Below are positions 4,959 to 51,217 of a stretch of 59,817 bases of DNA, in pieces. The translations under genes were made by a program, and so were the position numbers. Source of the DNA: a virus (Duplodnaviria > Caudoviricetes); IMG/VR virus record IMGVR_UViG_3300005805_009709, positions 1 through 59,817 of that record; one strand, given 5' to 3'. The notes below the pieces were generated by a model that worked only from the letters and a program-made list of their open reading frames with translations, was not told where the DNA came from and ran no database searches. How positions within the stretch are numbered: position 1 is the stretch's first letter; each line of letters opens with the position of its first letter.

Positions 4959-5290
4959 TGAAAAGAGTAGAAAAAGGTTGGGGTTATGAGCTATGGATTC
5001 ACAATGACGAAAAGTATTGTGGAAAACTTCTCTTTTTTAAAGCAGGAAAAAAGTGTAGTTTACACTTTCATAAGTTAAAGCATGAAACTTTTTACGTACA
5101 ATCAGGTAAGCTGAAGTGTACTTTTATAGATGGAGATGAGGTAGAACGCACGACCTTATCTGTCGGTGATACAAAAGAAATCTATCCAGGGTTGATTCAC
5201 CAAATGGAGGCTCTTGAAGACACTACGATGTTTGAATTTTCAACTCAACACTTTGATGAAGATAGCTATCGAATAGAAAAAGGTGATTAA
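4958..5290 (+). CDS. Cupin-domain sugar isomerase-like protein
   Basis: KGWGYE, SLHFHKLKHETFYV, later H: cupin metal motif. Confidence 0.8.
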   Translation: MKRVEKGWGYELWIHNDEKYCGKLLFFKAGKKCSLHFHKLKHETFYVQSGKLKCTFIDGDEVERTTLSVGDTKEIYPGLIHQMEALEDTTMFEFSTQHFDEDSYRIEKGD

Positions 5291-6120
5291 TGGGTCTTGG
5301 TGGACACTTAACATGGACTGCAGTCGCCGAAGAGATAAAAAAGAGAGTTGGCGATATAAAATTCATACCAGTAGAACAACACGGAAATTTATTGAAGTTT
5401 GTTGATAGCGAAATATTCAAACATAACAAAAACTTCTTGAGTGCGTTCCAACCAGCGGATTCAGCATTTCCCTTAATTCTTAACAACCCAGCTGCAAATT
5501 ATTGTAAAAAAGACACGCAAGAAAAAGCCTACCATAGAACAGACGCACACATAATAGAACAGTGCTGCGAAGTTTATGGAATAAAAAATCCAGCTTTAAG
5601 ATGTTATCTCAATTTCACAAATCAAGAAAATGCCGAAATCCAAAATATCATTGATTTGAATATTGGTCAAAAAGATTTCATAACGATTGAGCCATACTCA
5701 AAAGATAACTACACAGTAAATCGTGTGTACAGCTTTGAAAAATGGCAAGCCATCGTTGATGAGTTGAGCAAAGATTTTTTGTTTGTTCAAGTCGGCAACG
5801 CAGGAAAAACTTTAAAAAACACAATAGACCTAACTGGAAAAACTTCTTTTCTGCAGGCTGTCGGTATTATCGGTAAGTCAAGGCTTTTTATGAGTGCAGA
5901 AGGTGGCCTGGTTCACGCTGCGACAGCTGTAGACACGAAAAGTTTAGTCATAATAACTGGTTATCAATCTGAAAAGATGGTCGCATATCCGCAAAATATA
6001 AATGTGAATATTTCTAATCACGGCCCCTGCGGTTTGAAGAAACTATGTTTTGATTGTCAACTTGATGTTGAAAAGCATGATTGGAAAGACATTGTAAAAA
6101 AAGTGAGAGAGAATCTATGA
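5290..6120 (+). CDS. Glycosyltransferase family 9 (heptosyltransferase-like)
   Basis: MGLGG start, DLTGKTS, EGGLVHAATA, C-terminal PC..C..C. Confidence 0.75.
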   Translation: MGLGGHLTWTAVAEEIKKRVGDIKFIPVEQHGNLLKFVDSEIFKHNKNFLSAFQPADSAFPLILNNPAANYCKKDTQEKAYHRTDAHIIEQCCEVYGIKNPALRCYLNFTNQENAEIQNIIDLNIGQKDFITIEPYSKDNYTVNRVYSFEKWQAIVDELSKDFLFVQVGNAGKTLKNTIDLTGKTSFLQAVGIIGKSRLFMSAEGGLVHAATAVDTKSLVIITGYQSEKMVAYPQNINVNISNHGPCGLKKLCFDCQLDVEKHDWKDIVKKVRENL

Positions 6121-6536
6121 CACCAGTTGTATTCACCAACGGATGTTTTGACATCCTCCACGTTGGTCACATCAATTTATTAAGAGAGTGTAGAAAACTT
6201 GCAGGTAATACTGGAAAAGTTATTGTAGGCTTGAATAGCGATTCAAGTGTAAAAAAGTTGAAAGGTCCAAACCGGCCGGTAAATAATGAAAAATCTAGAA
6301 AATTTATTTTGGAATCGCTTAAATACGTCGATGAAGTAATCATCTTTGAAGAAGACGATCCAGAAGCCCTACTATCAAAATTAAAACCTGACTTTCTTGT
6401 AAAAGGAGGAGATTACACAGTCGAACAAATAATTGGAAAACAATACGCTAAAAAAGTTGTAGTATTTCCGTATGTCGATGGACACTCCACAACAAGCACA
6501 ATTGAAAAATTCTCAAAAAGTATTAGTCATCGGTGA
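6117..6536 (+). CDS. D-glycero-D-manno-heptose 1-phosphate adenylyltransferase (RfaE/HldE domain II, HldC-like)
   Basis: FTNGCFDILHVGH, GLNSDSSVKKLKGPNRP, VKGGDY, STT; ATGA overlap. Confidence 0.9.
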   Translation: MTPVVFTNGCFDILHVGHINLLRECRKLAGNTGKVIVGLNSDSSVKKLKGPNRPVNNEKSRKFILESLKYVDEVIIFEEDDPEALLSKLKPDFLVKGGDYTVEQIIGKQYAKKVVVFPYVDGHSTTSTIEKFSKSISHR

Positions 6537-7263
6537 TAGTTGCGAAGATGTATACCATTATGGGACATGCGAAAGATTAAGTCCTGAAGCTCCCATTCCT
6601 GTTCTAAACTTGAAAAGAACAGAATCAAGACCTGGTATGTGTTTAAACGTCGCTAAAAATCTTGAAGGTTTAGGATTAAACGTCGATGTTATTACACAAA
6701 AACAGAAGATTAAAAAACATCGATATGTTGAAGAAAAGCGATTAGTTCATTTACTGAGAGTTGATGACGAAAGAAATGAGCTTGATCAAATTAATGTGAG
6801 CGATATAATCAGGCTTTTAGAAATTAATGATTATGATGCGATTGTAATATCTGATTATGATAAAGGATTTCTGCCATTTTCTTCCTGCTCCGAGTTGATC
6901 AAGCTTATTCGAAAGCTACCTGTCTTTGTAGATAGCAAAAAGAAAGACTTATCTTGTTTTGAAAATTGTGTCATCAAAATTAATAAACAAGAAAAAGAAA
7001 GTGTGAAACAGCTTCCACAATATGCTGAGTTAATCGTGACGCTAGGCGAAAATGGTGCGATATGGAGAGGATCAAATTACCCGACTAGCAAATCAGAGCT
7101 TCATGATGTCTGTGGCGCAGGAGATACATTTTTAGCTGGACTCACATTTGAGTATCTTCAATCGTACGACTTACAAAAAGCAATCACTTTTGCAAACCGC
7201 TGTGCAAGTATATCAATTAATCATTTTGGAACATTCGTGCTTGATAAAAAAGATGTCCTCTAA
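6502..7263 (+). CDS. Heptose 7-phosphate kinase (RfaE/HldE domain I, HldA-like, PfkB family)
   Basis: VLVIGD, RLSPEAPIPV, ISDYDKG, DVCGAGDTF; start uncertain (TTG 6502 or upstream ATG). Confidence 0.85.
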   Translation: MKNSQKVLVIGDSCEDVYHYGTCERLSPEAPIPVLNLKRTESRPGMCLNVAKNLEGLGLNVDVITQKQKIKKHRYVEEKRLVHLLRVDDERNELDQINVSDIIRLLEINDYDAIVISDYDKGFLPFSSCSELIKLIRKLPVFVDSKKKDLSCFENCVIKINKQEKESVKQLPQYAELIVTLGENGAIWRGSNYPTSKSELHDVCGAGDTFLAGLTFEYLQSYDLQKAITFANRCASISINHFGTFVLDKKDVL

Positions 7264-13115: not shown

Positions 13116-13745
13116 ATGGGTAAATCAGATCAATTCATATTTCCTGAGTATTTGAAGCTTATAAGCGATATAAAAGCTGAGTCAATCGCGCTCCTCGGGT
13201 TTTCACAAGAAAATGATTTCACCAGATCTATTAATGCAAAAACAAAAAAATTTTTTGATGTCAGCTTAGGCAATTGGGACATCAACTCAGACTGGTCTCT
13301 CAATCAAAAATTTGATTTGATCATTAGTACACGCTGTCCTTATTTTTCAAAAGATCCAAAAACGTTTATTGCAAAGTGTAAAGAACATCTAACGCAAGGA
13401 GGGCATGCTCTCATCGACTGGGGACTAGGTGATCACTGGAGATTTAAAAACTACAAAGTAGGCTGGCTGCGCCATGGTGAGCTTGAGTTTGCTTATAAAC
13501 CAAGCAATTTTTTGCATTCCTGTTATTGGCATGATGATTTACTAAGTGACCCCAATGTGATATCATTTTGGAATTGTGTTGTAAAAAATCCAGAACTTGG
13601 ATACACACAGCAAGATGATTTGAAAGAAGTCATAAAAAAAGAAGTTCAGCACTTAATAAGCTATGACGTCAAAAAAATAAAAACAGTTTTTCTTTGGCCT
13701 GAACGTCCACAGCTTTATATCATTACTTTGATAGAAAATCAATGA
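13116..13745 (+). CDS. Putative methyltransferase-fold protein
   Basis: FDLII and L..GG..LID strand pattern, but motif I is degenerate. Confidence 0.4.
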   Translation: MGKSDQFIFPEYLKLISDIKAESIALLGFSQENDFTRSINAKTKKFFDVSLGNWDINSDWSLNQKFDLIISTRCPYFSKDPKTFIAKCKEHLTQGGHALIDWGLGDHWRFKNYKVGWLRHGELEFAYKPSNFLHSCYWHDDLLSDPNVISFWNCVVKNPELGYTQQDDLKEVIKKEVQHLISYDVKKIKTVFLWPERPQLYIITLIENQ

Positions 13746-14884
13746 AAAAAATTGCGATATTTTTAGGAGATTTCTTTTGGAGCAGCGTTCCGTATGATGG
13801 AATTAGGTTATTGAAAGAACTACAACAAGAGCAGAATTTACATGTAGATCTTTTAATGTTCGAACAAGATATCAGGTTGAACAAAGTATTCTCTGGCACC
13901 GAAAAATATTACTTCAATCCTGAAGTTTTCAAACTAGAAAAAAACTTGAGAACTATAAAAAGCTGGAATGATCTTTATCTTGCTTCAGGCGATTATTCTT
14001 TGATTCTTACATCTACTCACATCGCACCAAAAACAAGATATCCGCAAGATCTAAGAGCGAATAAAAGATGCCCAATCGCAGCTTGGGATATTGGTGGAAC
14101 TGATATCATCACTAATGCAACACACTTTGCTGATGCATATTTTGTCAAAGCTCCCATATGGAAGCGATGGTTACGATTAGAAAAAGGAATAGATGAAAGA
14201 AATATATGGGTCACAGGTTCACCGCACTATGACAGTTATTTCTTAGAAAACTATGGGTTAAGTGAAAAAGAAAAGTTTCATAAAAAGTATGATTTAAAAA
14301 AGGAAAAAACTATTTTAATCTGCCCCTCGAACCCAGGCTCTCATGTTGCCCAGTTTGAGCAGAACATGTCAGAATTAGAAAAGCTCATTGAATTTTCAAA
14401 AGAACTCAATGCAAATTTATTAGTAAAAACTTATCCGCACGATTACATGTTTTATGAAAAAGAAAAACAGTATTCGGGAATTTATAAAAGAATCTATAAA
14501 AACAAGCCACACTATGAGTTTTTAATAGAAAAATTTCCGGAATTAAAAATCATAGAGAGTCAAGATCACCACAATGCCGTAATGTTTTGTGACGCACTGT
14601 TCAATATGTCAGGATCCAGCATTTCTTGGGAAACACACTTTTCAAAGACTCGAAGTTATTCAATGAACTACAAAGATAAGCCATACTACGGTGCAGTTTC
14701 TTATCTAAAACATGCGAAATTACCTGACGAATTATACAACACTAATATTGACAAAATAACTGATCTAACGTTGAACAACAAAGAAAAAAATGAGGACAAT
14801 GAATACATTGTCACCTTGGATTCTTGTAAAGAAATAAAAAAGAAAATTAAAGATTGCTGCATATTGTTAAAGAAAGATAGCTAA
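13742..14884 (+). CDS. GT-B fold transferase (capsule/CMP-sugar or CDP-polyol transferase-like)
   Basis: IWVTGSPHYD, ILICPS, LLVKTYPHD, SSISWE. Confidence 0.55.
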   Translation: MKKIAIFLGDFFWSSVPYDGIRLLKELQQEQNLHVDLLMFEQDIRLNKVFSGTEKYYFNPEVFKLEKNLRTIKSWNDLYLASGDYSLILTSTHIAPKTRYPQDLRANKRCPIAAWDIGGTDIITNATHFADAYFVKAPIWKRWLRLEKGIDERNIWVTGSPHYDSYFLENYGLSEKEKFHKKYDLKKEKTILICPSNPGSHVAQFEQNMSELEKLIEFSKELNANLLVKTYPHDYMFYEKEKQYSGIYKRIYKNKPHYEFLIEKFPELKIIESQDHHNAVMFCDALFNMSGSSISWETHFSKTRSYSMNYKDKPYYGAVSYLKHAKLPDELYNTNIDKITDLTLNNKEKNEDNEYIVTLDSCKEIKKKIKDCCILLKKDS

Positions 14885-15826
14885 ATGAAAACTAAAGTAA
14901 TTTGCATTACTCCGCTAGATCATATTCCTACAGTCTTGAATCGTCTTCACGAGATTTGTGATGTTACATATCTGCCTAACATTAGCAAAGACGAGTTAAG
15001 AAATTTATTGTTGAAAACTAACTATAACGCGATTTTTACGAACCCTAATAAGCAAAATTTCAAATTAGATTTTGCGCTTTTGAATAACACAACTATTAAA
15101 CTAATCAATACTGCTTCAACAGGCACGAACCATATTAACTTTGATGATTGCAAAAAACTAGATATAGAAGTTTATTCATTAACCAAGGATTATGAACTAA
15201 TAAGAAAACTTCCATCTACAGCTGAATTAGCTTTTGGGTTGGCTTTATCTTTAATGAGAAAAATTCCACAGTCTTTTGATGATGTAAAGCGCGGAAATTG
15301 GAATTACGAACCGTATGTCGGAAGGCAACTAGCTGGATTAACGGCTGGTATCATCGGGTACGGAAGGCTTGGTACATTTATGGCACGGTATTGTCATGCG
15401 TTCGGAATGAAAGTACTGGTGAATGATCCTTTAAAAAATGTTTTTGAATACGATCAGGTTTCTAAAGAAGAAATTTATGAAAGGTGCGATTTAATATCGC
15501 TGCATGTCCACGTTAGTCCAGACACCCATGAAATGATAGATGAAAATGCAGTGAATAGAATGTTGAAAAAACCTTATATCATAAACACTTCTCGAGGAGA
15601 AATTGTGAATGAAACGCAAATAGCGAGAGCAATTAAGGAAGGAAAAATATCAGGTTACGGAGCTGACGTCATAGTTGACGAATTTTCTGAAAGTGTCGAA
15701 AATAGTGAGCTTATAAAACTTTCGAAAAAAGGATATAATGTTCTTATCACGCCACATATTGGTGGGATGTCCATAGAAGGGCAAGAAAGAGCGTATCTGT
15801 ACGCCGTAGAAAAATTCAAAAACTAA
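14885..15826 (+). CDS. D-isomer-specific 2-hydroxyacid dehydrogenase (SerA-like)
   Basis: STAELA, GIIGYGRLG, INTSRG, TPHIGG. Confidence 0.9.
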   Translation: MKTKVICITPLDHIPTVLNRLHEICDVTYLPNISKDELRNLLLKTNYNAIFTNPNKQNFKLDFALLNNTTIKLINTASTGTNHINFDDCKKLDIEVYSLTKDYELIRKLPSTAELAFGLALSLMRKIPQSFDDVKRGNWNYEPYVGRQLAGLTAGIIGYGRLGTFMARYCHAFGMKVLVNDPLKNVFEYDQVSKEEIYERCDLISLHVHVSPDTHEMIDENAVNRMLKKPYIINTSRGEIVNETQIARAIKEGKISGYGADVIVDEFSESVENSELIKLSKKGYNVLITPHIGGMSIEGQERAYLYAVEKFKN

Positions 15827-15836
15827 TGGTGATAAA

Positions 15837-16400
15837 ATGGAAATCAACGCGCTTGTAATAATTCCAGCAAAAGCTGATTCGACTAGGTTACCTGGCAAAA
15901 ATAAGAGAGTTATCGCAGGAAAAACTCTTCTTGAGCATGCGATACAATATGCTAAAAACTCGAAGCTAGCTTCAAAAATTGTCGTCTCTACAGAAGACAA
16001 AGAGACTAAAGAAATAGCTGAATCGCATGGCGTACAAGTTGTTGGTCGTGACATGGAGTACATGGGAGAAAGAGAAGTTGCTGATGTATACGTTAAGATC
16101 TTTAACGATCTGAATGATTTAAGTTATACACATGTTGTAGGTGTCCAGCCTGATCACCCAGACCGTTCTATTCCATTAGACGAGATGTTACAATATGCTG
16201 TGAAAAACAAGTATGATGATCTTTTCACAGTAAATCAAGATGGTTCTAGAAATGGTTCAATCAGAATTACAAAGGCTCAGCATGTCGCATCGGGCCTCAT
16301 GAGTAGAAGAGTTGGATCAATGCTAGATGCTTGTACGAACATCCATAGTGAACAAGACCTATTGAACGCCGAGCGCAACATTCTTAATAGAAAAGATTGA
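15837..16400 (+). CDS. Short divergent CMP-ulosonate synthetase (NeuA/KdsB-type cytidylyltransferase)
   Basis: IIPAKADSTRLPGKN, VSTED, VQPDHPDR. Confidence 0.75.
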   Translation: MEINALVIIPAKADSTRLPGKNKRVIAGKTLLEHAIQYAKNSKLASKIVVSTEDKETKEIAESHGVQVVGRDMEYMGEREVADVYVKIFNDLNDLSYTHVVGVQPDHPDRSIPLDEMLQYAVKNKYDDLFTVNQDGSRNGSIRITKAQHVASGLMSRRVGSMLDACTNIHSEQDLLNAERNILNRKD

Positions 16401-16404
16401 TTGT

Positions 16405-17217
16405 ATGAACAACGACTATATCGACTCCTTGAAAAAACAAGGAAAGTTAAACATATCGATCGATAAAAGCAAAAAGTTTACTTGGGAATACACCAAGATC
16501 GCCGGTCCATGCTCTGTTGAAGGTCCAAGCATTACTGAAATTGCAAAAAAAATTAAAAACATAGGAGCTAACGCTTTTAGGGCTGGGGCTTATAAACCCT
16601 GCACGTTTCCTGTTCTAAAAGAAACTAATGGGTGGAAAGAAGGCTTGAGAAAAGAAGGCCTATCTCTTTTAAAGCAAGTCAAGAAAGAAACGGGTCTACC
16701 TATCGTAACTGAAGTCATGGACGCGAGTATGATAGATGAGATTTCAGAAGTGGCCGACGTGTTACAAGTTGGCACTAGAAATTTTCAGAATTATTCTTTG
16801 TTAGATGCCTTAGGAAGAATTAATAAACCTATTCTCCTGAAAAGAGGAACATGGGGAACCATTGATGAAATATTAGGGTCTTGTGAAAGAATTTTAGTTG
16901 GAGGAAACGATAAGTTAGCCATTTGCTTGCGTGGTGTCGTCGGCGCTCCAAGCTACAGACATGTGTTTCCTACAGTTAGATGGGCTCCTGACTTGATGAT
17001 GATCCCGGCCCTTAAAGAATTCACAAACATACCAATCATATATGATCCAAGTCACTCAACTGGGTATCGCAAATTCGTAAAACCTATTTCAAAAGCGGCG
17101 ATGGCCGCAGGAGCGGATGGGTTAATAATCGAATGTCATCCAGAGCCAGATAAATCTATCAGTGATGCAGCACAAGCAATAAATTATGATACATTAAGTG
17201 AGATTTTCAATGGATGA
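16405..17217 (+). CDS. Type I-beta DAHP synthase-like PEP aldolase, catalytic barrel only, KPRT motif changed to KPCT
   Basis: IAGPCSVE, RAGAYKPCT, QVGTRNFQN, LKRG, DPSH, IECHPEP..SD. Confidence 0.85.
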   Translation: MNNDYIDSLKKQGKLNISIDKSKKFTWEYTKIAGPCSVEGPSITEIAKKIKNIGANAFRAGAYKPCTFPVLKETNGWKEGLRKEGLSLLKQVKKETGLPIVTEVMDASMIDEISEVADVLQVGTRNFQNYSLLDALGRINKPILLKRGTWGTIDEILGSCERILVGGNDKLAICLRGVVGAPSYRHVFPTVRWAPDLMMIPALKEFTNIPIIYDPSHSTGYRKFVKPISKAAMAAGADGLIIECHPEPDKSISDAAQAINYDTLSEIFNG

Positions 17218-18004
17218 TAGCTTATACGAAAAATTCAAAAATGACAGAATCATCATTGCAGGCCCGTGCGTACTTGAAGATTATGATAAAGCATTAACAT
17301 TCGCAAACTTTGCCAGTAGTGTCTGCGAAAAATACGGATTCACTTATGTATTCAAAGCGTCTTTTGATAAAGCTAATAGAACGTCGATTAATTCATATCG
17401 AGGCACGGGCATTGAAAAAGGGATAGAGATATTCAAAGCGCTTAGTGAAAGTTTCTATACGTTGACTGATTTCCATACACCTGAACAAGCAGATTTAATT
17501 GCAGATCATGTCGATATAATCCAAATACCTGCTTTCTTATGTAGGCAAACTGACATGTTGGTTGCTGCAGCTAAAACAGGTAAAATTGTTAATATCAAAA
17601 AATTTCAAATGCTTGCTGGAAAAGACATGCTCAGGCCAATAGAAAAAGTCTTAAGCGCCAACAACGATAAAATAACCCTAACTGAGCGAGGCACACTAAT
17701 CCCTTATGGAAATCTAATTCTTGATTTGAAGAATATTGTAGACATGCTCGGGTTTGGATTTCCTGTCGTTATGGACTGCACGCATACATGCCAAACTCTA
17801 CACCCAAATCAAGAAAAGACTTCAGGTAGAATTGAAATGGCTCCTATATATGCCCAGGCTGCGGCCATCTGTGGAGTTAAAAGTTTTTTTGCAGAAATTT
17901 ATGACGATCCTCGATGCGCCAAGTCTGATGCCGAGACATCATTAACTTTTGAAAAGTTTGAAGATCTGACTCATAAAATCGACAAAACCATGAAGGCAGT
18001 ATGA
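17210..18004 (+). CDS. kdsA: Kdo-8-phosphate synthase
   Basis: IAGPCVLE, KASFDKANRTS, QIPAFLCRQTD, TERG. Confidence 0.9.
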   Translation: MDDSLYEKFKNDRIIIAGPCVLEDYDKALTFANFASSVCEKYGFTYVFKASFDKANRTSINSYRGTGIEKGIEIFKALSESFYTLTDFHTPEQADLIADHVDIIQIPAFLCRQTDMLVAAAKTGKIVNIKKFQMLAGKDMLRPIEKVLSANNDKITLTERGTLIPYGNLILDLKNIVDMLGFGFPVVMDCTHTCQTLHPNQEKTSGRIEMAPIYAQAAAICGVKSFFAEIYDDPRCAKSDAETSLTFEKFEDLTHKIDKTMKAV

Positions 18005-18693
18005 ACAACAAAGAATATGTCATCAGTAAGATTAAAGAATCTGTGGTAAATGATGCGCCGTGGAAACATGTAGTGATAAAAGATTTCATGCCTCCATCTT
18101 TATATGAAGGCATGAAAAATGAAATAACGCCGTATGAAGCCAGTCCTTGCTTAAAAAACGTGAATACGAGAGCATACCACATTTATGTTAACGATTCAGT
18201 CGGCGTATATCCCAACACACCATACCTGAAAGAATATTATGACATCTTATCAGATGAAAGTGTTTTGAATGAGGTTTTGAAAAAATTAGAATTAACGTCT
18301 CAGCCTTTACCTAAAGATTTTTACAGCGAAGTTAATTTCATAACACAAGATTGGATTTATGATGAAGTGCACCCTGATAGAAGTGATAAGTTAATCACTA
18401 TGATTCATTATCTTGCGGATGAAGGCGATGATGAATCGTTGGGTACCTTTCTGTATACGCCACATGTAGATGGTAAAAACTTACGAGTCTTTGAAGATAT
18501 GGTTAGCTCTACTCCGTATGTGGGAAATTGCTTTTTGATGTTTGCGCCACAAGACACAAAAGAATGTAGAACGAATCATTGCATGGGCAATAATTCTAAG
18601 AAAACTTTTATTAGAAAATCTATTCAAGCTTTCTGGATCAAGGAAAAAGCTGACTGGACTAAAGACAAGCAAAGTGGAAGAATACGTTTATGA
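18001..18693 (+). CDS. 2OG-Fe(II) oxygenase-like protein
   Basis: PWKHVVIKDF, HPD..H facial triad, R-x-S. Confidence 0.65.
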   Translation: MNNKEYVISKIKESVVNDAPWKHVVIKDFMPPSLYEGMKNEITPYEASPCLKNVNTRAYHIYVNDSVGVYPNTPYLKEYYDILSDESVLNEVLKKLELTSQPLPKDFYSEVNFITQDWIYDEVHPDRSDKLITMIHYLADEGDDESLGTFLYTPHVDGKNLRVFEDMVSSTPYVGNCFLMFAPQDTKECRTNHCMGNNSKKTFIRKSIQAFWIKEKADWTKDKQSGRIRL

Positions 18694-19445
18694 AATTACC
18701 CTTTAGTTTTGGCGATAAGACCATAAATTTCTGCGCGGATGAAGATTTTGGTTATGAACCAATGAAGAAACGTCTTGAAGCATATCTTCAAGATGAGCCT
18801 TACACGATTGATTGGATAAAATCATTTAAGCCAAAATCTGTATTTTGGGATATCGGCGCCAATGTCGGCGGATTTTCTTTTATCGCAGCAATGTGCCATG
18901 ATGACATAAAGGTTTTTTCTTTTGAACCAAATTTCATGAACTCGCACAACCAATTAAAGACCTGCAAAGAAAATGACATAAAGAATGTCTTTCCCCTGAA
19001 TGTTGCGATTAATCACAGAAATGAAATTAACTTTTTTTATTATGATCAAGTTATAAATGGATCAAAAGGAACATTTAGCGACAAATTAAAAGATCAACTT
19101 GCAAAATCTGATTATGGAAACCCGTTCAAGCGAGGAATAAAGCATCAAGTTTCTATATTAGGCGTTTCATTAGATAGTTTGGTTTATGACTTCGGGTTGA
19201 ATAAGCCAAATTACATAAAAATCGATGTCGATGGTAATGAACTTTTAGTTATCGAAGGCGCGAAAAAATTACTCAATGAGTCTGAAGTAAAACAAATTTT
19301 CATAGAAATAGATGATAAGATTTACCCCAATAAAGAAATTGAAAATTTCATGAGTGGTTACCCATACAAGATAGAGAAACACTTGCAGGTAGGTACACCA
19401 GAAAAACCACTACGAATGATGCTATACACAAAAAATGATTCTTGA
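18690..19445 (+). CDS. FkbM family methyltransferase
   Basis: WDIGANVG, FEP, IKIDVDGNE. Confidence 0.9.
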   Translation: MKLPFSFGDKTINFCADEDFGYEPMKKRLEAYLQDEPYTIDWIKSFKPKSVFWDIGANVGGFSFIAAMCHDDIKVFSFEPNFMNSHNQLKTCKENDIKNVFPLNVAINHRNEINFFYYDQVINGSKGTFSDKLKDQLAKSDYGNPFKRGIKHQVSILGVSLDSLVYDFGLNKPNYIKIDVDGNELLVIEGAKKLLNESEVKQIFIEIDDKIYPNKEIENFMSGYPYKIEKHLQVGTPEKPLRMMLYTKNDS

Positions 19446-19480
19446 CTCGATAATGTTGTATAAATTCAACGAGTATTCGC

Positions 19481-20476
19481 ATGAGCAAGAGCATTAAATT
19501 CACGAGCATTCATACTGAAAATAAAAGAATGCTTCTTAAGAGTGAGATGGAAAAAATCACGCTTAAAATTCATCAATTATTTAAGCCGGGAGAAAAACAG
19601 ACTGCATGCCCATGCTGCCATAGTGAATTACTCGTTTCGTACGTAGAAAAGTTTGGATATAACATTGATCGCTGCGAGGCATGTCAACACTTATTCACTA
19701 ATCCTTTTCCAACCAAAGATGCGTTAACCTACTTTTACAATAGTGAATTTAAAGATTTTGAAAATCAATTTTTCATCGATTCTTTTGAGAATAGAATCCC
19801 TATTTTCAAACAGAGAATTAAACTTCTGAAAAACTCAGGCGTAGGGTCAAAAATTCTAGACGTCGGCTCTGCCGTGGGTATATTCATAGAGGCAAATCGA
19901 AGAACAGGTAAAAAGCTAACGATCGATGCATGCGACATTAGTGCGAATGCTTGTGCATACTTGAAAAAAAAATTTCCAAACACCACTATTTTCAATCATG
20001 ACATTTCAGATTTACCCGAGGGTGAATATGACGCAGTGACGCTATGGGATACATTAGAACACATACCTGACCCCAAAGAGTTATTGGCTGGTGTGAAACG
20101 TCAGTTAAGGTCGGGTGGACATTTTATCTTCAGCACACCCAATACTCATAGCTTTGAATGGGAAATCATGGGCAAAGAACATGTGCAGCTATTACCACCG
20201 GGGCATGTCAACCTCTATAATACAAAGAACATAAGTACACTGTTAAATCAGTGTGGTTTTTCTGTCGAGGGCATCCACACGCTGAATCCTTCTTTAGATT
20301 TGACGTATATAAAAAATGTTTTTAGCGTCGATGAAAACTTAGAAACGATGTACTCTAGAGCCGCGAACAAACTATTGGAGCTCATTCTTTCAAAAGAAAA
20401 CTTTCCAGCTTTAGAAAAAGCTCTTCGCAAGCAGCTATACGCAGGAAACATGATCGTCATATCAAGGCTTAGTTGA
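19481..20476 (+). CDS. Class I SAM methyltransferase with N-terminal Zn ribbon
   Basis: CPCC..CEAC, LDVGSAVG, WDTLEHIPDP, STPN. Confidence 0.85.
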   Translation: MSKSIKFTSIHTENKRMLLKSEMEKITLKIHQLFKPGEKQTACPCCHSELLVSYVEKFGYNIDRCEACQHLFTNPFPTKDALTYFYNSEFKDFENQFFIDSFENRIPIFKQRIKLLKNSGVGSKILDVGSAVGIFIEANRRTGKKLTIDACDISANACAYLKKKFPNTTIFNHDISDLPEGEYDAVTLWDTLEHIPDPKELLAGVKRQLRSGGHFIFSTPNTHSFEWEIMGKEHVQLLPPGHVNLYNTKNISTLLNQCGFSVEGIHTLNPSLDLTYIKNVFSVDENLETMYSRAANKLLELILSKENFPALEKALRKQLYAGNMIVISRLS

Positions 20477-20486
20477 ACGTTGCGTC

Positions 20487-21194
20487 ATGGAAATTATAGA
20501 AGATAAAAAAGTAATAGTAATTGGAAATAGCCCTTCCATTCTATTAAAAGAAAATGGTGAATTTATAGATTCACATGACATCGTGATTAGAGTTAATCAC
20601 TGTCCAACAGATGGTTATGAGAAATTTATAGGTAAAAAAATTGATATTTGGGCTACGACGAAAATATCTCTATATAAAGACAGATTCATCCCACGCGACT
20701 TTGATAAACTATCACAAATTTGGCACCGCACAGAAAAAACTAAAAGAGTGTCAGGCTTGTTGCCTAAAAGTGAAATAAAAAATTTCGTAATGTACAAAAC
20801 ACAACGGTTTAAAGAATCTTTTGGCCACCTTCTTAATATTAGTGAAGAAAATCGATCCCCCGATCGCAGATGGTGTCTGAAAGACACCGATCAAGAACCA
20901 TGCACAGGCTTATTGACAATCTTAACCAGCACTTTGTTCTACAAGACCGTGAATATTCTTGGGTTCACTTTTTACACTGAGCAAAAAGACAATCAAGTTT
21001 TAGGATATTATCGCAAAGATCAGCTCGATAAAAATGGAATTCACGCTGAAGACAAATTTTGGGAAGATGCGAAAAAAAATGGTTTCACAAGCGCAAAAGT
21101 TGGAGATATAAAAAAGAAAATAATCAGTGACTTAGTGGACACACATCGCGTAAAGCTAATAAATGAAGAAGAACTAAAAGGACTGCAATTATGA
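20487..21194 (+). CDS. GT29 sialyltransferase-like protein
   Basis: Sialylmotif L (VIGNSPSIL..NGEFIDSHDIVIRVN), motif S (PCTG..GF), VS-like H..E. Confidence 0.75.
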   Translation: MEIIEDKKVIVIGNSPSILLKENGEFIDSHDIVIRVNHCPTDGYEKFIGKKIDIWATTKISLYKDRFIPRDFDKLSQIWHRTEKTKRVSGLLPKSEIKNFVMYKTQRFKESFGHLLNISEENRSPDRRWCLKDTDQEPCTGLLTILTSTLFYKTVNILGFTFYTEQKDNQVLGYYRKDQLDKNGIHAEDKFWEDAKKNGFTSAKVGDIKKKIISDLVDTHRVKLINEEELKGLQL

Positions 21195-21538
21195 AAATAC
21201 AAGGAAAGATCTGGGGTAAAACTCAAGAAATTTTTAAAAACGCAAACTTTGAATTGCATAGAATTGAAGCAAAGAAAGGTGGGTTTTCTTCTGTTCATAA
21301 GCATGCCTACAAGTTCAATGCGTTTTATGTCGAAAAAGGCTCAATAAAAATCACGATCTATGAGAATGATTATGACTTAGTAGATGAGACGATTGTCTCT
21401 ACGAATGAATTAACGGTAGTGAAGCCAGGTAACTATCATAAGTTTGAAGCGCTAGAAGACACCATCTGTTATGAAATTTATTGGGTCGAATTAAACCATC
21501 AAGATATAGAAAGAAAAAACGTTGGTGGCATTCAATAA
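21191..21538 (+). CDS. Cupin-domain protein
   Basis: KIWG, SVHKH..KFNAFYV, YHKF. Confidence 0.75.
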   Translation: MKIQGKIWGKTQEIFKNANFELHRIEAKKGGFSSVHKHAYKFNAFYVEKGSIKITIYENDYDLVDETIVSTNELTVVKPGNYHKFEALEDTICYEIYWVELNHQDIERKNVGGIQ

Positions 21539-22247
21539 AACAGCAATAGGAGTAATCCCAGCCCGTCTACACTCCACCCGATTTCCAAGAAAAATATTGG
21601 CTGATATAAATGGTAAGCCAATGGTGATTCATACTGCACAGCAGGCAGCAAAAGCCACTCTTTTGGAGAGAATAATCATAGCAATTGATGATATAGAAAC
21701 CTATGCTATATTAGAAGATTTTAATTTTGAACTTGTAATGACGTCTAAACAACATCTATCAGGCACTGATAGGATCGCCGAGGCTGTTAATAAATTGAGT
21801 GATGCCGAAATTATCATTAACATACAAGCTGATGAGCCATTTGTTGACCCTAAAGCTATAGATTCTCTTGTTGAATCATTCAACCAGCCCAGTGTTCATA
21901 TTTCTACATTAGTAAACAAACACATCACTAAAGAAATTCTAAAAGATAAAAATGTCGTTAAAGCAATTTTGGATGATAACCATTGGGCAGTTGATTTTAA
22001 AAGAATTCTAGAAACGAATGCTCCAAATGAACCAATTTATAAGCATATGGGCATTTATGGTTACACTCAAGATGCCTTAATGAAATTTGTTTCGATTCCG
22101 CAATCTGAAAGAGAAAAACAAAGAAATCTAGAACAAATGCGTGCGTTGGATAATAATATCCAGATAAAAGCAGTCATCACAGAATTAGACAGTTTTTCAA
22201 TCGACACAGAAGAAGATTATTACGCAGCAAAGAGAGCTTTCACATGA
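21525..22247 (+). CDS. kdsB: CMP-Kdo synthetase
   Basis: IPARLHSTRFPRK, SGTDR, NIQADEP, HMGIYGY, LEQMRAL, IDTEED. Confidence 0.9.
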   Translation: MAFNKTAIGVIPARLHSTRFPRKILADINGKPMVIHTAQQAAKATLLERIIIAIDDIETYAILEDFNFELVMTSKQHLSGTDRIAEAVNKLSDAEIIINIQADEPFVDPKAIDSLVESFNQPSVHISTLVNKHITKEILKDKNVVKAILDDNHWAVDFKRILETNAPNEPIYKHMGIYGYTQDALMKFVSIPQSEREKQRNLEQMRALDNNIQIKAVITELDSFSIDTEEDYYAAKRAFT

Positions 22248-23107
22248 AAGAAGGAATGAAAAAAAATATAGAAAGAAAGCAGCCATCGATTAATGATGTT
22301 GTTGTAATGAATGGTGTTCCCTTATTCAGTTTTATAGAATTGAACATCAACGAAATTTGCAATAGGGTTTGTGCGTTCTGTCCACGCAGTGAGCCAGATG
22401 TATATCCTAATCAAAACATCCACATGGATTTAGAGATTGCTGAAACAATTTCAAAACAGCTGCAAGAAATTAACTTTAAAGGTATTGTCAACATCAGCGG
22501 AACTGGTGAACCTTTACTCACAAAATATATTGTTGACATAGTAAAGCTATTTGGAAGCAAAGGTATACATGTCGAGATAGTAACGAATGGAGATGTTTTG
22601 ACGAAAAAGAACGGTAAAGCTTTGATAAAAGATCTTTATAAAGCAGGTCTTTGCCAATTCGTAGTCAGCATGTATGACGGTCCTGAGCAAATAGAATATT
22701 TTACTAACTTATTTTCAGATTGTGGTATTGAAAATTCTCTATATACGTTAAGAGATCGTTGGTATGATGAATCAGAAGAGTATGGTCTACTCTACACAAA
22801 CAGAGCAGGTTACATAAAAAATAGCTTAAAAAAGTTTAAAGATTCACCTTGCTATTATCCACATTATTCTATGTACATAGATTGGAACGGAGACGTCTTG
22901 CTGTGTTGTCAAGACATGTATAATCGAACCGCTAAGTTTGGTAATGTTAAAGAAAAAAGCATGTTAGAAATTTGGACAGATCCAAGATTGATCGAATACA
23001 GAAACAAACTTGCGAATGGTGATAGGTCTTTATCACCCTGTAATGGATGCAACGCAAATGGTAAAATATTTGGCCAAAATCATGCGAACATGTGGGTCTT
23101 AAAATGA
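22244..23107 (+). CDS. Radical SAM protein with SPASM/twitch domain
   Basis: CNRVCAFC, GEP, C-terminal PC..CC..C..C. Confidence 0.85.
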   Translation: MKEGMKKNIERKQPSINDVVVMNGVPLFSFIELNINEICNRVCAFCPRSEPDVYPNQNIHMDLEIAETISKQLQEINFKGIVNISGTGEPLLTKYIVDIVKLFGSKGIHVEIVTNGDVLTKKNGKALIKDLYKAGLCQFVVSMYDGPEQIEYFTNLFSDCGIENSLYTLRDRWYDESEEYGLLYTNRAGYIKNSLKKFKDSPCYYPHYSMYIDWNGDVLLCCQDMYNRTAKFGNVKEKSMLEIWTDPRLIEYRNKLANGDRSLSPCNGCNANGKIFGQNHANMWVLK

Positions 23108-24231
23108 TAGTAAAAAAAGCTTACGGTTGCTATATCGAAGATGAAGCTGGTAATCGATTGATTGATACGTCAATGGGTTCTGGAGCTCAAATAATTGGGC
23201 ATGGAAATATATTAGCAAAAAAAGCAAGCAAAAAAATTAAGAATGGAACGATTTATTCAATCCCCAATGTTCATACAGAAAAAGTTAGCCATCTTTTAAA
23301 GCAACACATTAATCCTACTCTTCATGAAGATTATATTTTCTGTAGCACAGGTACTGAAGCCAACATGCGCGCTTGTAGATTGGCAAGAGCGTTTACAGGT
23401 AGAGATATTATCGGTCGCTTTCATGGCGGTTGGCATGGTGGACTTGATGGATTTTTGGCGGAGCATCCCGATAGCAAAGGCATACCTCAAAGTGTAAATG
23501 ATCTAACAAGGGTTTTGCCCTATAACGATGAAGAGTGCTTCGAAAAAATCACCACTGACTTTGCTGCGGTAATAATAGAACCAGTACAAGGCTCTAATCC
23601 TCGGCATGATGTTAAAGACTTTTTACAAAAGCTAAGAAAGCGCTGTAATGAAACTGGAACTTTGTTGATTCTTGACGAAGTAATGACAGGTTTTAGACTA
23701 TCAAAAACAGGCGGCGCTGGGCTTTTTGATGTTACACCTGATATTGTCACGTATGGTAAAGTTTTGGGCGGCGGCTTTCCTATTGGAGCCTTAGGCGGAA
23801 AAACTGAAATCATGCAAACTAAAAATGTTTTCTATGGCGGCACCTTCTCAGCCAATCCCCTGAGCATGTATACGGCCAAATTGATTCTCAAGACAATCGT
23901 TGCACAAGAATTGATCCAGTATGATAAACTAAACTCTGCCGGCGAAAATTTTAGAGATACGCTCAACGAGTATTTTACACGCGAAAATAAACCATTAAGA
24001 GTTATGGGTTGCGGACCTCTTAATAGAATTATTTTCACGGATAAATTCATCAAAAATAGAAAAGAAAGAGACGAATTAGAAAGCCAAAATCAAAACATTT
24101 TTTATGATAGTTTGAAAAACAATGGTGTTTTTGTGAATGGTAATAGGCTCTTTCATTTTTCGATGTGCCATACAAAAGATGTAGTAGATGAAATAATCGA
24201 AAAAATAAAAACAACAAGCTCTAAATTTTAG
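23104..24231 (+). CDS. Class III PLP aminotransferase (HemL/GSA aminomutase-like)
   Basis: STGTEANM, GGWHG, IIEPVQG, DEVMTGFR, YGKVLGGG, GGTFSANP. Confidence 0.85.
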   Translation: MIVKKAYGCYIEDEAGNRLIDTSMGSGAQIIGHGNILAKKASKKIKNGTIYSIPNVHTEKVSHLLKQHINPTLHEDYIFCSTGTEANMRACRLARAFTGRDIIGRFHGGWHGGLDGFLAEHPDSKGIPQSVNDLTRVLPYNDEECFEKITTDFAAVIIEPVQGSNPRHDVKDFLQKLRKRCNETGTLLILDEVMTGFRLSKTGGAGLFDVTPDIVTYGKVLGGGFPIGALGGKTEIMQTKNVFYGGTFSANPLSMYTAKLILKTIVAQELIQYDKLNSAGENFRDTLNEYFTRENKPLRVMGCGPLNRIIFTDKFIKNRKERDELESQNQNIFYDSLKNNGVFVNGNRLFHFSMCHTKDVVDEIIEKIKTTSSKF

Positions 24232-24244
24232 TAATATAGAAAGC

Positions 24245-24904
24245 ATGAACAAAAGCTATATCTTCAAAGAAAATAATGAAGAAATTGAATTTGTAGGCGA
24301 CTTTGATGGGCTGTATGCTGAGCAAGAAGATCCTTGGCATCAATCAGGAAATTCTGGAGACATAAAAGATTATTACTTTTATGCGAGAAAAAAGCTAGGA
24401 TTGCAATTAAAAGAAATCCATCCAAAGACTCTATTAGAAGTTGGCTGCGGATTAGGCTATACTACGAAACTCATACAACAAGACGTACCAGACTGTCGTG
24501 TTGAAGGTATGGATATCAGCGGTGTTGCTATAGAAAAAGCGAGAAAGCTGTTTCCAGAATTGGCTTTTTCAAAAGGCAGCATCGCCGATGCCACGCTGCG
24601 CTTACAGCGTAAGTATGAAGTGATTATTTTGAACCAACTACTCTGGTATGTGCTAGGATCTCTTGATGTTGTTTTCAACAATTGTTTTAATCACTTAACT
24701 GACGATGGTCAATTAATCATTAGTCAAGCGTTTTTTAAATCAGGACAGAAATATGGGAAAAATATCTGCGATGGTTTTGATGGATTATTATTCTATTTGA
24801 AAAATAATACTAAAGATGTTTTTGAGATAGAATATTATGAACACAACGCTACTAAAAAGCTATTACACGACGACGGGTTGTTTGTTCTGAGGAAAACCAA
24901 GTGA
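24245..24904 (+). CDS. Class I SAM methyltransferase
   Basis: EDPW, LEVGCGLG, GMDIS. Confidence 0.85.
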   Translation: MNKSYIFKENNEEIEFVGDFDGLYAEQEDPWHQSGNSGDIKDYYFYARKKLGLQLKEIHPKTLLEVGCGLGYTTKLIQQDVPDCRVEGMDISGVAIEKARKLFPELAFSKGSIADATLRLQRKYEVIILNQLLWYVLGSLDVVFNNCFNHLTDDGQLIISQAFFKSGQKYGKNICDGFDGLLFYLKNNTKDVFEIEYYEHNATKKLLHDDGLFVLRKTK

Positions 24905-25542
24905 AAGTTTCAGCTATCATTCGATATAGAAATGAAGAAGAATGGATCGGACATGCGATACAGAGCTTCATTGATTTTTTTCCTGATGGCGAAATAATTG
25001 TGATTGACAACAATTCAACTGACGCGTCGTCCGACATAATCAAATTATTCGATAGGCATGATATCAAAAAGCTTGACATCAAAGATTACACCCCCGGTAG
25101 GTCTTTGAATTTAGGCGCTGAACATGCAAAATATGACACTATTCTTGTACAGTCAGCTCATACCGTCATAAAAAAAATTGATTATGAGAATCTAGAAAAA
25201 AATATCACTAAACACGCCGCTGTTTTTGGTAATCAAACACCAATCTATCTGGGTAAGAGAATTACGAAAAGATACATCTGGTCACATTTTAAAGACAACG
25301 TCCAAATTGAAAATTTCTTTTCAGAGTCAGAAAACAGGCAATTCTTGCATAACGCGTTCTGTTTTTATCAAAAGGATGTTTTGCTAAAAAACAAATTCGA
25401 TGAAAAGCTTCATGGGAAAGAAGACAGATATTGGGCGGCGGAGATCGTAAAGAAGGGGTACACATACCTCTATGACTCTGTAAACTTGTCCAGTTATCAT
25501 TACTACACCAAGAATGGTGCAACGTGGAAAGGTCTTGGTTGA
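24901..25542 (+). CDS. Glycosyltransferase family 2
   Basis: IIRYRNEE, VIDNNSTD, SAH, KEDRYW. Confidence 0.8.
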   Translation: MKVSAIIRYRNEEEWIGHAIQSFIDFFPDGEIIVIDNNSTDASSDIIKLFDRHDIKKLDIKDYTPGRSLNLGAEHAKYDTILVQSAHTVIKKIDYENLEKNITKHAAVFGNQTPIYLGKRITKRYIWSHFKDNVQIENFFSESENRQFLHNAFCFYQKDVLLKNKFDEKLHGKEDRYWAAEIVKKGYTYLYDSVNLSSYHYYTKNGATWKGLG

Positions 25543-25850: not shown

Positions 25851-26768
25851 ATGAAAAACATTGCTGTAATTGGTCAAGGTTTCGTTGGTGGTTCATTAAC
25901 AACTGTTTTTGCTGAAAGAGGCTTTGATGTGTATGCTTATGACAAAGCAGGTAAATACGCACAAGGCGCCCAACCATCTGCCGGTGGCAAGTTTCCAGAA
26001 TCCATCAAAGATTTAATCTTAAATAATGAGAATGGTAAAACTTCAAAGGTTTATTTTGTCTGCCTTCCTACACCTATGCAAGATGATGGCTCCGCCGATC
26101 TTTCTATTGTAGAAGGCGCGCTAAAAGAGCTAGCATCTATACCAGGAGAAAGAATTGCCGTCATTAAATCAACGGTTCCACCTGGGTCTACTGAAAAGTG
26201 GAACATGATGTTTGCTGAAACAGGATTGAGAATTATTTTCAACCCTGAGTTTTTAACAGAGAGAACCGCGGTCGATGACATGCGCAATCAAAACCGGATT
26301 ATCCTTGGTGGTCCTCGCCCATGGATCAATGTTGTAAAACAAATTTTTGGTACAGCATTCCCAAGCGCAAAGTTAATCAAAACCTCTTCAACAACCGCTG
26401 AAATGGTCAAGTATTTGACAAACAATTTTCTCACTGTTAAAGTTGCTTTTGCGAATGAAATGCTACAAATCTGTAGCGCGCTCGACAAAAATGGATTAAA
26501 TGTCGATTATGATAAAGTAGTTGAATATGCAACGTTCGATTCTAGGATTGGTACAAGTCACTGGAATGTACCTGGCCCTGATGGTAAACTTGGATTCGGC
26601 GGCAGTTGTTTTCCTAAAGATATTAACGCGATGATTTGTGTCGCCCAGTCCATGGATGTTGATCCAAAAGTTTTGAAGGCGGCATGGCAAAAGAATTTAG
26701 AAGTTCGTCCTGAGAGAGATTGGGAAAAGCTTATCGGTCGCGCAATTTCTAAAAAATCAGATGATTGA
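25851..26768 (+). CDS. UDP-glucose/GDP-mannose dehydrogenase family protein lacking the C-terminal domain
   Basis: IGQGFVG, CLPTP, KSTVPPG, NPEFL, GFGGSCFPKD. Confidence 0.85.
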   Translation: MKNIAVIGQGFVGGSLTTVFAERGFDVYAYDKAGKYAQGAQPSAGGKFPESIKDLILNNENGKTSKVYFVCLPTPMQDDGSADLSIVEGALKELASIPGERIAVIKSTVPPGSTEKWNMMFAETGLRIIFNPEFLTERTAVDDMRNQNRIILGGPRPWINVVKQIFGTAFPSAKLIKTSSTTAEMVKYLTNNFLTVKVAFANEMLQICSALDKNGLNVDYDKVVEYATFDSRIGTSHWNVPGPDGKLGFGGSCFPKDINAMICVAQSMDVDPKVLKAAWQKNLEVRPERDWEKLIGRAISKKSDD

Positions 26769-50124: not shown

Positions 50125-50621
50125 TGTAGATCTTCTGGATTAATTTCCTGAGGTGCATCTTCGTATCCAGCCTTCGCAGCGAATAGTTCCTCAATGTTGA
50201 ACTTATGCTTCGACTTTTTCGTCAATCGAACACACTTGACATCTTCATTGTTGCGACTCTTGAATGGAATAAATTCTTCGATGGTCCATCCGCTGTGTAT
50301 TCCAATGATTTCGTTTTTTCTTAACGCATATGATTTGATGTTCTTCGCTATCCTGACCTGGTCGATTCTCAAAACTTCATTTCCTTCTGTGATAAACTCA
50401 CAGCCCATCCACTCGACCTCCATCGTCTCACCATGTCGAAGATATATCATCGTACCTAAGTTTGGATCTAATCTTGCTTCTTTCTGTAGATCTGGGTCGT
50501 GATACCAAACGTACAACGCTTCTGGAGTATCGAACACAGGGATTCTTTTTCCATTGGACCCCTTGTTCACGGTAATCCGTATCTTTTTCACGTAGGTACC
50601 TCGTTGCCCCATGCGTCCCAT
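50121..50621 (-). CDS. Hypothetical protein
   Basis: 166-aa ORF co-directional with the methylase; start uncertain. Confidence 0.55.
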   Translation of the reverse strand: MGRMGQRGTYVKKIRITVNKGSNGKRIPVFDTPEALYVWYHDPDLQKEARLDPNLGTMIYLRHGETMEVEWMGCEFITEGNEVLRIDQVRIAKNIKSYALRKNEIIGIHSGWTIEEFIPFKSRNNEDVKCVRLTKKSKHKFNIEELFAAKAGYEDAPQEINPEDLH

Positions 50622-51172: not shown

Positions 51173-51217
51173 GTGACGAATTGTATAACCTAATAAAAAA
51201 ACATAAACATAAAATGT

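Follow-up and report, generated by a model that had tools for sequence, protein, structure and literature searches.

A phage gene cassette organized around a KPCT-type homologue of DAHP synthase and its probable role in forming a CMP-activated acid sugar

The IMG/VR virus record IMGVR_UViG_3300005805_009709, all 59,817 bases of which constitute the window analyzed here (CheckV completeness, 17%), represents a genome fragment of an uncultured marine phage. It carries a glycan cluster of 30 kb, within which lies a gene for a homologue of 3-deoxy-D-arabino-heptulosonate 7-phosphate (DAHP) synthase whose KPR(T/S) motif reads KPCT. Bases 1-30,000 of the plus strand form a single cluster of glycan genes encoding glycosyltransferases (GT) of families GT2, GT4, GT9 and GT29, SDR epimerases and methyltransferases, together with heptose-branch genes, kdsA and kdsB, as recognized by Pfam and NCBIfam profiles. 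An initial annotation of this DNA had placed between positions 13742 and 17217 a run of four genes for a GT-B transferase, a 2-hydroxyacid dehydrogenase, a divergent cytidylyltransferase and a type I-beta DAHP synthase homologue, and had proposed that they specify a new pathway to an acid sugar activated with cytidine monophosphate (CMP). All four open reading frames (ORFs) are present there, closely packed on the plus strand and separated by 0, 10 and 4 nt (Table 1). Here, we describe an analysis of the proteins encoded by this run, of their relatives, and of the gene order that these relatives share.

The best matches of the synthase among sequences of the Protein Data Bank are the unregulated I-beta DAHP synthases of Aeropyrum pernix (1VS1), Pyrococcus furiosus (1ZCO/4C1K) and Thermotoga maritima (1RZM), with E values of 3e-55 to 8e-52. 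It has in common with these enzymes the Pfam family, the metal site, the Lys and Arg residues for phosphoenolpyruvate (PEP), and a bare (beta/alpha)8 core with no regulatory domain. The motifs GPC (C36), GTRN (R125), LKRG (K146, R147) and DPSH (H217) are kept, as are E243 and D254; C36, K64, R125, K146, R176, H217, E243 and D254 have aligned counterparts in 1VS1 and 1ZCO and do not vary within the family. We take the Cys, His, Glu and Asp residues of this set to be metal ligands and the Lys and Arg residues to bind PEP. Because both sites are intact, the condensation of PEP with an aldehyde has probably been kept.

The Arg of the KPR(T/S) motif binds the phosphate of erythrose 4-phosphate (E4P). 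In the window's enzyme the Lys-Pro of the motif is retained and the Arg is replaced by C66, and the loop that follows is six residues longer than in 1VS1 and 1ZCO. The initial annotation had recognized the KPCT motif, the intact metal and PEP ligands, the longer loop and the lack of a regulatory domain, all of which the alignment to these two structures bears out. It had missed a second six-residue insert, which follows LRG (R176) and bears the invariant residues Y184-R185-H186, and two further differences from the I-beta enzymes, the change of ERG to LRG (E to L175) and of GRR to GYR (first R to Y221); it had also missed kdsA, kdsB, a GT29-like gene and the GT2 partner of the cassette. W77, W150 and W193 are likewise invariant in the KPCT family. 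The KPCT motif itself is present in 128 of 131 relatives, a set that includes fragments of 84-178 aa, with one relative reading KPIS and two having no match to the pattern; because it is fixed in this manner, a sequencing error was rejected as the source of the Cys. The fixed exchange of Arg for Cys, the two conserved loop inserts and the other family-specific changes are in keeping with an altered aldose site. The replacement of Arg by Cys, Glu by Leu and Arg by Tyr, with the gain of Trp and Tyr residues, would give a less charged pocket capable of stacking against a sugar, and thus suggests a non-phosphorylated aldose as the substrate.

The same protein could be read as an ordinary DAHP synthase, carried by the phage as an auxiliary gene that boosts aromatic amino acids, its location among glycan genes being accidental and the Cys tolerated. 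It is a member of PF00793 with all catalytic residues, and it matches the PHROGs phage family of that name (phrog_5045, 5e-26). Its scores, however, are below the curated cut-offs for DAHP synthase (TIGR01361, 236.4 bits versus 267.75; PRK08673/NF006421, 268.1 versus 335), the motif Arg is lost throughout its clade, and, as described below, its gene has a fixed synteny with cytidylyltransferase and glycosyltransferase genes and is in some cases fused to the former. Moreover, a Pfam scan of 59 ORFs of the window detected no shikimate genes, as the initial annotation had noted for the vicinity of the run. An ordinary role in aromatic biosynthesis is therefore scarcely credible. The enzyme is also distinct from the synthases of known acid sugars: the KdsA model NF003543 gives it 100.3 bits versus a cut-off of 242, and it has no KANRS motif; NeuB (PF03102) gives 25.4 bits where PF00793 overlaps it with 172.6 bits, and a SAF domain is lacking. 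Judged from these comparisons, the synthase most likely descends from type I-beta DAHP synthase and is most likely not a shikimate enzyme.

The best 150 representatives of a library clustered at 50% identity read KPRT (111) or KPRS (18) in most cases, with KPCT in five and KPLT, KPAT, KPST and the like in a few. Trees were computed with FastTree (152 rows) and with IQ-TREE (62 rows), the latter from 14 Arg-less sequences, 4 with KPST or KPTT, 43 with KPRT or KPRS (38 taken at random and 5 added by hand) and a KdsA outgroup. The clade of the window comprises 8 rows with an SH-type support of 99. All 14 KPCT, KPLT and KPAT rows lie on one side of a branch with a support of 87-88, which is suggestive, not strong, evidence for a single Arg-less group that includes this clade; the source names in this wider group include Candidatus Scalindua and Nanoarchaeota.

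The long-loop clade to which the window belongs is mostly viral, with 12 IMG/VR loci at 63-84% identity, one of them a record of 172.9 kb rated 90% complete. In cellular genome collections, where the scans reached close relatives only, it was found on four contigs, labelled Nitrosopelagicus, Bacteroidetes, Pelagibacteraceae and Elusimicrobia. The long-loop KPCT form occurs in just one of 401 genomes of the family of the Pelagibacteraceae-labelled genome, namely that genome (L005) itself. Likewise, among 301 genomes of the phylum of the Elusimicrobia-labelled genome (L006), L006 alone had a match above 50% identity, and the other 69 with matches at E <= 1e-55 were at most 49% identical. The gene is common in ocean metagenomes: 7,997 of 7,999 scored candidates from marine metagenomes had an E value <= 0.001, the best 120 listed being 76-100% identical, and a relative is encoded on 443 of 494 candidate stretches of a JGI contig collection. 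A tblastn search of a phage database with the synthase returned 15 records, all at <=41% identity and mostly unannotated fragments.

Gene order was compared over 94 loci (2 genome contigs, 12 viral and 80 metagenomic), and the order dehydrogenase, short cytidylyltransferase, KPCT synthase, small GT2 glycosyltransferase is nearly invariant among them. Every one of the 57 loci with sufficient flank has a dehydrogenase homologue <=2.6 kb upstream of the synthase. For the cytidylyltransferase, 81 of 87 loci have a homologue <=1.3 kb upstream, in 73 of them as the immediate neighbour, and the remaining six also carry one (two overlap an early start call, two are at 1.4 kb behind a B12-radical-SAM gene, and two are fused to a dehydrogenase), so that the domain is upstream in 87 of 87. 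Directly downstream, a small GT2 homologue is present in 66 of 79 loci. In nine of the 13 exceptions that position is held, as in the window, by kdsA, by an oxygenase-FkbM-GT29 block, or by both; three have an aminotransferase and a second cytidylyltransferase, and one a methyltransferase and GT29. In the window the block from kdsA to a methyltransferase gene displaces the GT2 gene 7.7 kb downstream of the synthase. When strict criteria are applied to all three partners at once, they are found together in 36 of the 50 loci with flank on both sides. The GT-B gene has a homologue in only 3 of 94 loci and is an accessory gene, not a constant part of the cassette. Thus, the gene run of the initial annotation holds for the dehydrogenase, cytidylyltransferase and synthase and fails for the GT-B transferase, the constant partner being the small GT2. 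That annotation had also put forward the phylogeny and gene neighbourhood of KPCT variants as a check on its proposal; the former gave a well-supported clade and the latter a near-invariant association with a cytidylyltransferase.

The usual extended order of the loci is dehydrogenase, cytidylyltransferase, synthase, GT2, O-methyltransferase, GT29, SDR. BLAST detected GT29-like genes in 36 of the 94 loci and clustering in 46, in many cases two genes beyond the small GT2; a kdsA-like gene is present in 12. Four loci have a true UDP-N-acetylglucosamine (UDP-GlcNAc) 2-epimerase (cluster 34) with SDR and GFO genes upstream of the cassette, and a true NeuB gene lies beside it in three, at full length in L044 and in part in L064 and L093.

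The functional linkage indicated by gene order is also seen in fused proteins. In P0318 (504 aa) and P0319 (484 aa) a short cytidylyltransferase is joined to a KPCT synthase in the order in which the two genes occur in the window; both read KPCT, at 65% and 61% identity to the window synthase, respectively. The other 118 longer relatives listed are all <=51% identical to it, 116 of them read KPRT or KPRS, and most appear to carry a prephenate dehydratase, ACT, chorismate mutase, prephenate dehydrogenase or ferredoxin-like DAHP synthase N-terminal domain. The KPCT enzyme differs from the I-beta synthases in its partners, which are a cytidylyltransferase and glycosyltransferases and not aromatic-pathway domains. 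At L006 a GT2-cytidylyltransferase fusion stands beside the KPCT synthase. At L005, L094 and L115 a cytidylyltransferase-dehydrogenase fusion is followed by an MR_MLE (acid-sugar-dehydratase-like) gene, a second dehydrogenase gene and the KPCT synthase gene; positions 4213-8846 of L005 and 308-7454 of L094 represent a cellular-type variant of the cassette, preceded in L094 by a true UDP-GlcNAc 2-epimerase and an SDR gene.

The fusions of the short cytidylyltransferase extend to a second class of synthase. Among its 13 longer relatives, 11 are cytidylyltransferase-NeuB-SAF fusions (38-46% identity), in which the cytidylyltransferase part has the QPDHPDR and CTNIH motifs in common with the short enzyme of the window. 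In the phage locus L039 such a NeuB fusion is located upstream of homologues of the window genes that begin at 24901, 25851, 26801, 27662 and 28891, and hence occupies the slot held elsewhere by the KPCT cassette. Within positions 1571-9972 of L039, a pair of B12-binding radical-SAM enzymes flanks this cytidylyltransferase-NeuB-SAF fusion, as do a sulfotransferase and two PLOD-type GT domains.

The cytidylyltransferase of the window is related to KdsB and NeuA and is divergent from both. The CTP_transf_3 domain covers only its N-terminal 133 residues, corresponding to profile positions 2-126 of 217, and the protein scores under all NCBIfam cut-offs for KdsB and PseF (best, a KdsB model at 56.9 bits versus 255). 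The CTP-binding P-loop IPAKxDSTRLPGK (IPAKADSTRLPGK at residue 9) and QPDHPD at residue 104, which represents the xQxDxP motif, both align with the KdsB structures 3TQD and 3DUV. The protein is predicted to form a CMP-ketoside from the product of the synthase, a role for which its fusions to the KPCT synthase and to NeuB are the argument, and the synthase product is very likely the substrate of the cytidylyltransferase. This product would be neither Kdo (3-deoxy-D-manno-octulosonate) nor the product of a co-occurring NeuB, because true kdsA and kdsB genes or, in a few loci, neuB are present alongside.

The dehydrogenase retains an intact NAD site and an intact catalytic Arg/Glu/His set, its GYGRLG, NTSRG, DVIVDE and TPHIGG motifs (at residues 158, 234, 261 and 289) aligning with 3KB6 and 1WWK. 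It is below every NCBIfam cut-off, the best being phosphoglycerate dehydrogenase at 147 bits versus 454. Enzymes of the D-2-hydroxyacid dehydrogenase family work at the carbon adjoining a carboxylate, and the substrate of the one in the cassette may be a precursor, a substituent, or a dicarboxylic sugar that has an alpha-hydroxy acid at its distal end. Glyoxylate, the one aldehyde that a D-2-hydroxyacid dehydrogenase can make (from glycolate), was considered as the acceptor for PEP and rejected on chemical grounds, because the resulting 4-hydroxy-2-oxoglutarate would be unable to close the ketose ring required for CMP activation.

We propose, at a probability of roughly 0.7, that the genes between 14885 and 17217, together with the GT2 gene at 24901-25542, are a phage cassette for an undescribed CMP-activated sugar of the 3-deoxy-2-ulosonic acid type. 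The support for this proposal comes directly from sequence features, synteny and fusions, and from these we infer its chemistry, substrate, CMP product and transferase. In this pathway the KPCT synthase would condense PEP with an aldehyde; its rebuilt aldose pocket makes E4P an improbable substrate and a non-phosphorylated sugar a likelier one, so that the synthase would do the job of NeuB in pathways of the sialic acid type. The short cytidylyltransferase would convert the product to a CMP-sugar, the dehydrogenase would perform a coupled redox step, and the small GT2, the GT29-like enzyme or, in the window, the GT-B protein would transfer the sugar residue to a glycan. We lean weakly toward a hexose-derived, sialic-acid-like product of nine carbons because the cytidylyltransferase has NeuB-fused kin, because GT29 genes are neighbours, and because UDP-GlcNAc 2-epimerase, SDR and GFO genes accompany the cassette in four loci. 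The general claim of the initial annotation, that a modified DAHP synthase underlies a new pathway to a CMP-activated acid sugar, is upheld in kind by synteny, by the fusions and by the aromatic-pathway fusions of KPRT and KPRS enzymes; its specific choice of a seven-carbon product is not.

Several observations weigh against this proposal. We know of no GT2 enzymes that use CMP-sugars, and the adjacency of synthase and GT2 may partly reflect a conserved phage backbone, since in L039 the NeuB fusion is followed by the same GT2 and the genes downstream of it. The short cytidylyltransferase lacks about 45 residues present in KdsB, including the window's own KdsB, and is below all curated cut-offs. 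The invariant R185 and H186 of the second insert could rebuild an anion site, so that the non-phosphorylated state of the substrate is something that we infer; if the substrate is phosphorylated, the cassette is without a phosphatase. Finally, the dehydrogenase fits no known CMP-ulosonate pathway, and its action as a reductase on the free ulosonate would remove the keto (anomeric) centre that CMP activation requires.

The initial annotation had favoured a C7 ulosonate, possibly a 3-deoxy-heptulosaric acid (Dha)-like one, and the one feature that points to a seven-carbon product is descent from an E4P enzyme. According to this alternative a C4 aldose (erythrose, threose, their phosphates, or a tetruronate) would be condensed with PEP to a C7 ulosonate or a Dha-like heptulosaric acid, which would then be CMP-activated. 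The lineage of the synthase, in the E4P-using I-beta branch and not in that of KdsA or NeuB, and its retained Lys-Pro are consistent with such an acceptor, as is a UDP-glucose-dehydrogenase-like neighbour in 12 of 94 loci. Nevertheless, the exchange of Arg for Cys and the longer loops would suggest a larger pocket, the closest fused relatives of the cytidylyltransferase are paired with NeuB, and UDP-GlcNAc 2-epimerase, SDR and GFO genes lie upstream in some loci. None of the features tested indicates a tetrose or a tetruronate, and we consider a four-carbon acceptor unlikely; the C7 and Dha-like product of the initial annotation is accordingly not supported.

A dicarboxylic product would give the dehydrogenase a role, in that the distal alpha-hydroxy-acid end of an ulosaric sugar would offer it a natural substrate. 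The cassette might then make a CMP-activated ulosaric acid sugar, either Dha-like or a longer one derived from an aldose of the uronic acid type, with a carboxylate occupying the former site of the E4P phosphate and the dehydrogenase acting on the distal end. In the pyranose form of Dha, however, the C6 oxygen is part of the ring, which leaves no free alpha-hydroxyl for the dehydrogenase. We hold an ulosaric product to be improbable.

A direct role for the dehydrogenase on a 2-oxo acid would arise if the cassette made no glycosyl donor at all. The dehydrogenase would in that case yield a 3-deoxy-aldonic acid, which would be CDP- or CMP-linked for incorporation into a teichoic-acid-like phosphodiester polymer or for use as a GT2 aglycone. 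The cytidylyltransferase-dehydrogenase fusions fit this scheme, and the GT-B protein resembles the CDP-glycerol phosphotransferases of the TagF type. Yet the GT-B gene occurs in only 3 of 94 loci, whose frequent neighbours include GT29-like genes; the cytidylyltransferase is of the KdsB/NeuA type, its closest fused relatives being attached to NeuB, whose products are ulosonic acids; and the loss of the phosphate-binding Arg opposes the terminal phosphate needed for a CDP-alcohol. We therefore judge an aldonic acid highly unlikely.

The structure of the GT-B protein is compatible with more than one activity. Its ESM Atlas model has a GT-B fold, with a TM score of 0.72 to an Epimerase_2 cluster and of 0.70 to a Glyphos_transf cluster of the TagF type, and the closest named feature cluster in the Atlas is a putative CDP-glycerol glycerophosphotransferase (0.97). 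AlphaFold2 prediction from a 3-row alignment gave a mean pLDDT of 43.9, too low for use in a fold search. An hhalign comparison of its profile with those of the genuine Epimerase_2 proteins in L094 and L027 detected no kinship (probability, 0.5%). The protein may be either a transferase resembling TagF, KpsS or polysialyltransferase or a 2-epimerase-like enzyme.

To our knowledge, all known CMP-activated acid sugars are made by way of KdsA- or NeuB-type synthases. The cassette follows the logic of the NeuB/NeuA pathways (N-acetylneuraminic, legionaminic and pseudaminic acids and Kdn) and their sialyltransferases, in which a PEP-dependent synthase is followed by CTP activation and a transferase; its cytidylyltransferase-then-synthase order is that of the cytidylyltransferase-NeuB-SAF fusions, and GT29-like genes are frequent in its loci. 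It departs from those pathways in having a synthase that is not NeuB and lacks SAF, and in a constant dehydrogenase that has no counterpart in them. With the Kdo pathway (KdsD, KdsA, KdsC, KdsB) it has in common the aldolase superfamily of the synthase, the KdsB family of the cytidylyltransferase, and the cluster itself; unlike that pathway, the KPCT cassette includes no isomerase or phosphatase. The DAHP synthase of P. furiosus reportedly shows substrate ambiguity.

A third branch of the aldolase superfamily, one that comes from the shikimate pathway, thus appears to have been recruited to glycan synthesis, and the KPCT family provides a test case for the rewiring of aldose specificity. Databases annotate its members as DAHP synthase, a label that would wrongly credit phages, and organisms such as Nanoarchaeota and Scalindua, with a step of the shikimate pathway. 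Once identified, the sugar would represent a new building block for the glycobiology of microbes and viruses. In the literature outside subscription journals we found no DAHP-synthase-type enzyme in ulosonic-acid or phage glycan pathways; PMC7387560 proved unrelated. Dha resembles the proposed product in being an acidic sugar of the 3-deoxy-2-ulosonic type, and differs in that it comes from plants and algae, the cassette being from phage; a tie between the two is neither supported nor excluded. Reviews from 2025 and 2012 (PMC12168206, PMC3355719) give the synthesis and the activated form of Dha as unknown, and the former agrees in this with the initial annotation, which had called Dha biosynthesis unresolved; GT29-like proteins of plants figure in the 2025 review as candidate Kdo/Dha transferases (PMC12168206). 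If the product were ulosaric, the cassette would be the first to provide a sugar of the Dha class with an enzymatic route and with an activated form.

Table 1. Positions and best profile or structural matches of the KPCT cassette and neighbouring genes in the window
Feature	Position	Strand	Match
GT-B-fold protein, 380 aa	13742..14884	+	Pfam: weak Epimerase_2 match only, E 0.003
D-isomer 2-hydroxyacid dehydrogenase	14885..15826	+	PF02826, 2.3e-44
Short KdsB/NeuA-family cytidylyltransferase, 187 aa; predicted CMP-ulosonate synthetase	15837..16400	+	PF02348 (CTP_transf_3), E 2e-20
KPCT-type DAHP-synthase I-beta homologue, 270 aa	16405..17217	+	PF00793 (DAHP_synth_1), E 9.9e-51, residues 32-266
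True KDO8P synthase KdsA, KANRT motif	17198..18004	+	NF003543, 288 bits vs cut-off 242
2OG-Fe(II) oxygenase-like protein	18001..18693	+	No Pfam match; Atlas TM 0.71-0.78 to 2OG-FeII_Oxy_3 clusters
FkbM-family methyltransferase	18690..19445	+	PF05050, 1.4e-16; TIGR01444, 84.5 bits
GT29 (sialyltransferase-family) protein, candidate CMP-acid-sugar transferase	20487..21194	+	PF00777, 2.2e-16
True CMP-Kdo synthetase KdsB	21522..22247	+	NF003952, 248 bits vs cut-off 193
Small GT2 glycosyltransferase, usual fourth gene of the cassette	24901..25542	+	PF00535, 9e-16

The kdsA gene overlaps the end of the synthase gene by 20 nt, and by their profile scores kdsA and kdsB are a separate, ordinary Kdo branch; since both are true members of their families and lie in the same cluster, the KPCT enzyme would be dispensable for Kdo. 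No KdsD isomerase or KdsC phosphatase was found in the window to complete the phage Kdo branch. A 115-aa cupin (21191-21538) that overlaps the start of kdsB might be an isomerase. The 2-oxoglutarate (2OG)-Fe(II) oxygenase-like gene opens the recurrent oxygenase-FkbM-GT29 block and has homologues in 8 of 94 loci. Its association with the FkbM methyltransferase suggests hydroxylation of a sugar and subsequent O-methylation; bacterial proteins in which 2OG-Fe(II)-oxygenase-like and FkbM parts are fused are listed in the Atlas. Farther downstream (22244-24231), a radical-SAM/SPASM gene overlaps one for a class-III aminotransferase, and the pair or parts of it recur downstream of the cassette in several loci. 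The UDP-glucose-dehydrogenase-like gene of the window (25851-26768) encodes a UDP-glucose/GDP-mannose dehydrogenase-family protein of 305 aa, in which the N-terminal and central domains were matched and the C-terminal domain was not. The heptose-branch genes (5290-7263) encode a GT9-like heptosyltransferase, a small cytidylyltransferase-like nucleotidyltransferase and a PfkB kinase, a trio that resembles a split HldE.

The remainder of the window (bases 30,000-59,800) encodes a gp25-like baseplate protein, a baseplate wedge subunit and very long tail-type ORFs, as well as a DNA ligase, a sigma-70-like factor and a lysin. On the minus strand, positions 50121-57227 contain genes for an MT-A70 methyltransferase, a PTH2 peptidyl-tRNA hydrolase, a NADAR domain protein, an ATP-dependent DNA ligase and a sigma-70-like factor. 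A megablast search with positions 13742-22247 gave no match among cultured and deposited phages. The wedge subunit has counterparts of about 30% identity in Flavobacterium phages, in a Microcystis phage and in an uncultured phage of 484 kb. The contig L004, which comes from a Bacteroidetes-labelled single-cell genome and is 44.6 kb in length, carries the cassette with a synthase 77% identical to that of the window, and also a 1016-aa ORF. The cassette of L004 and the Flavobacterium-phage-like baseplate protein of the window hint at a host among the Bacteroidota.

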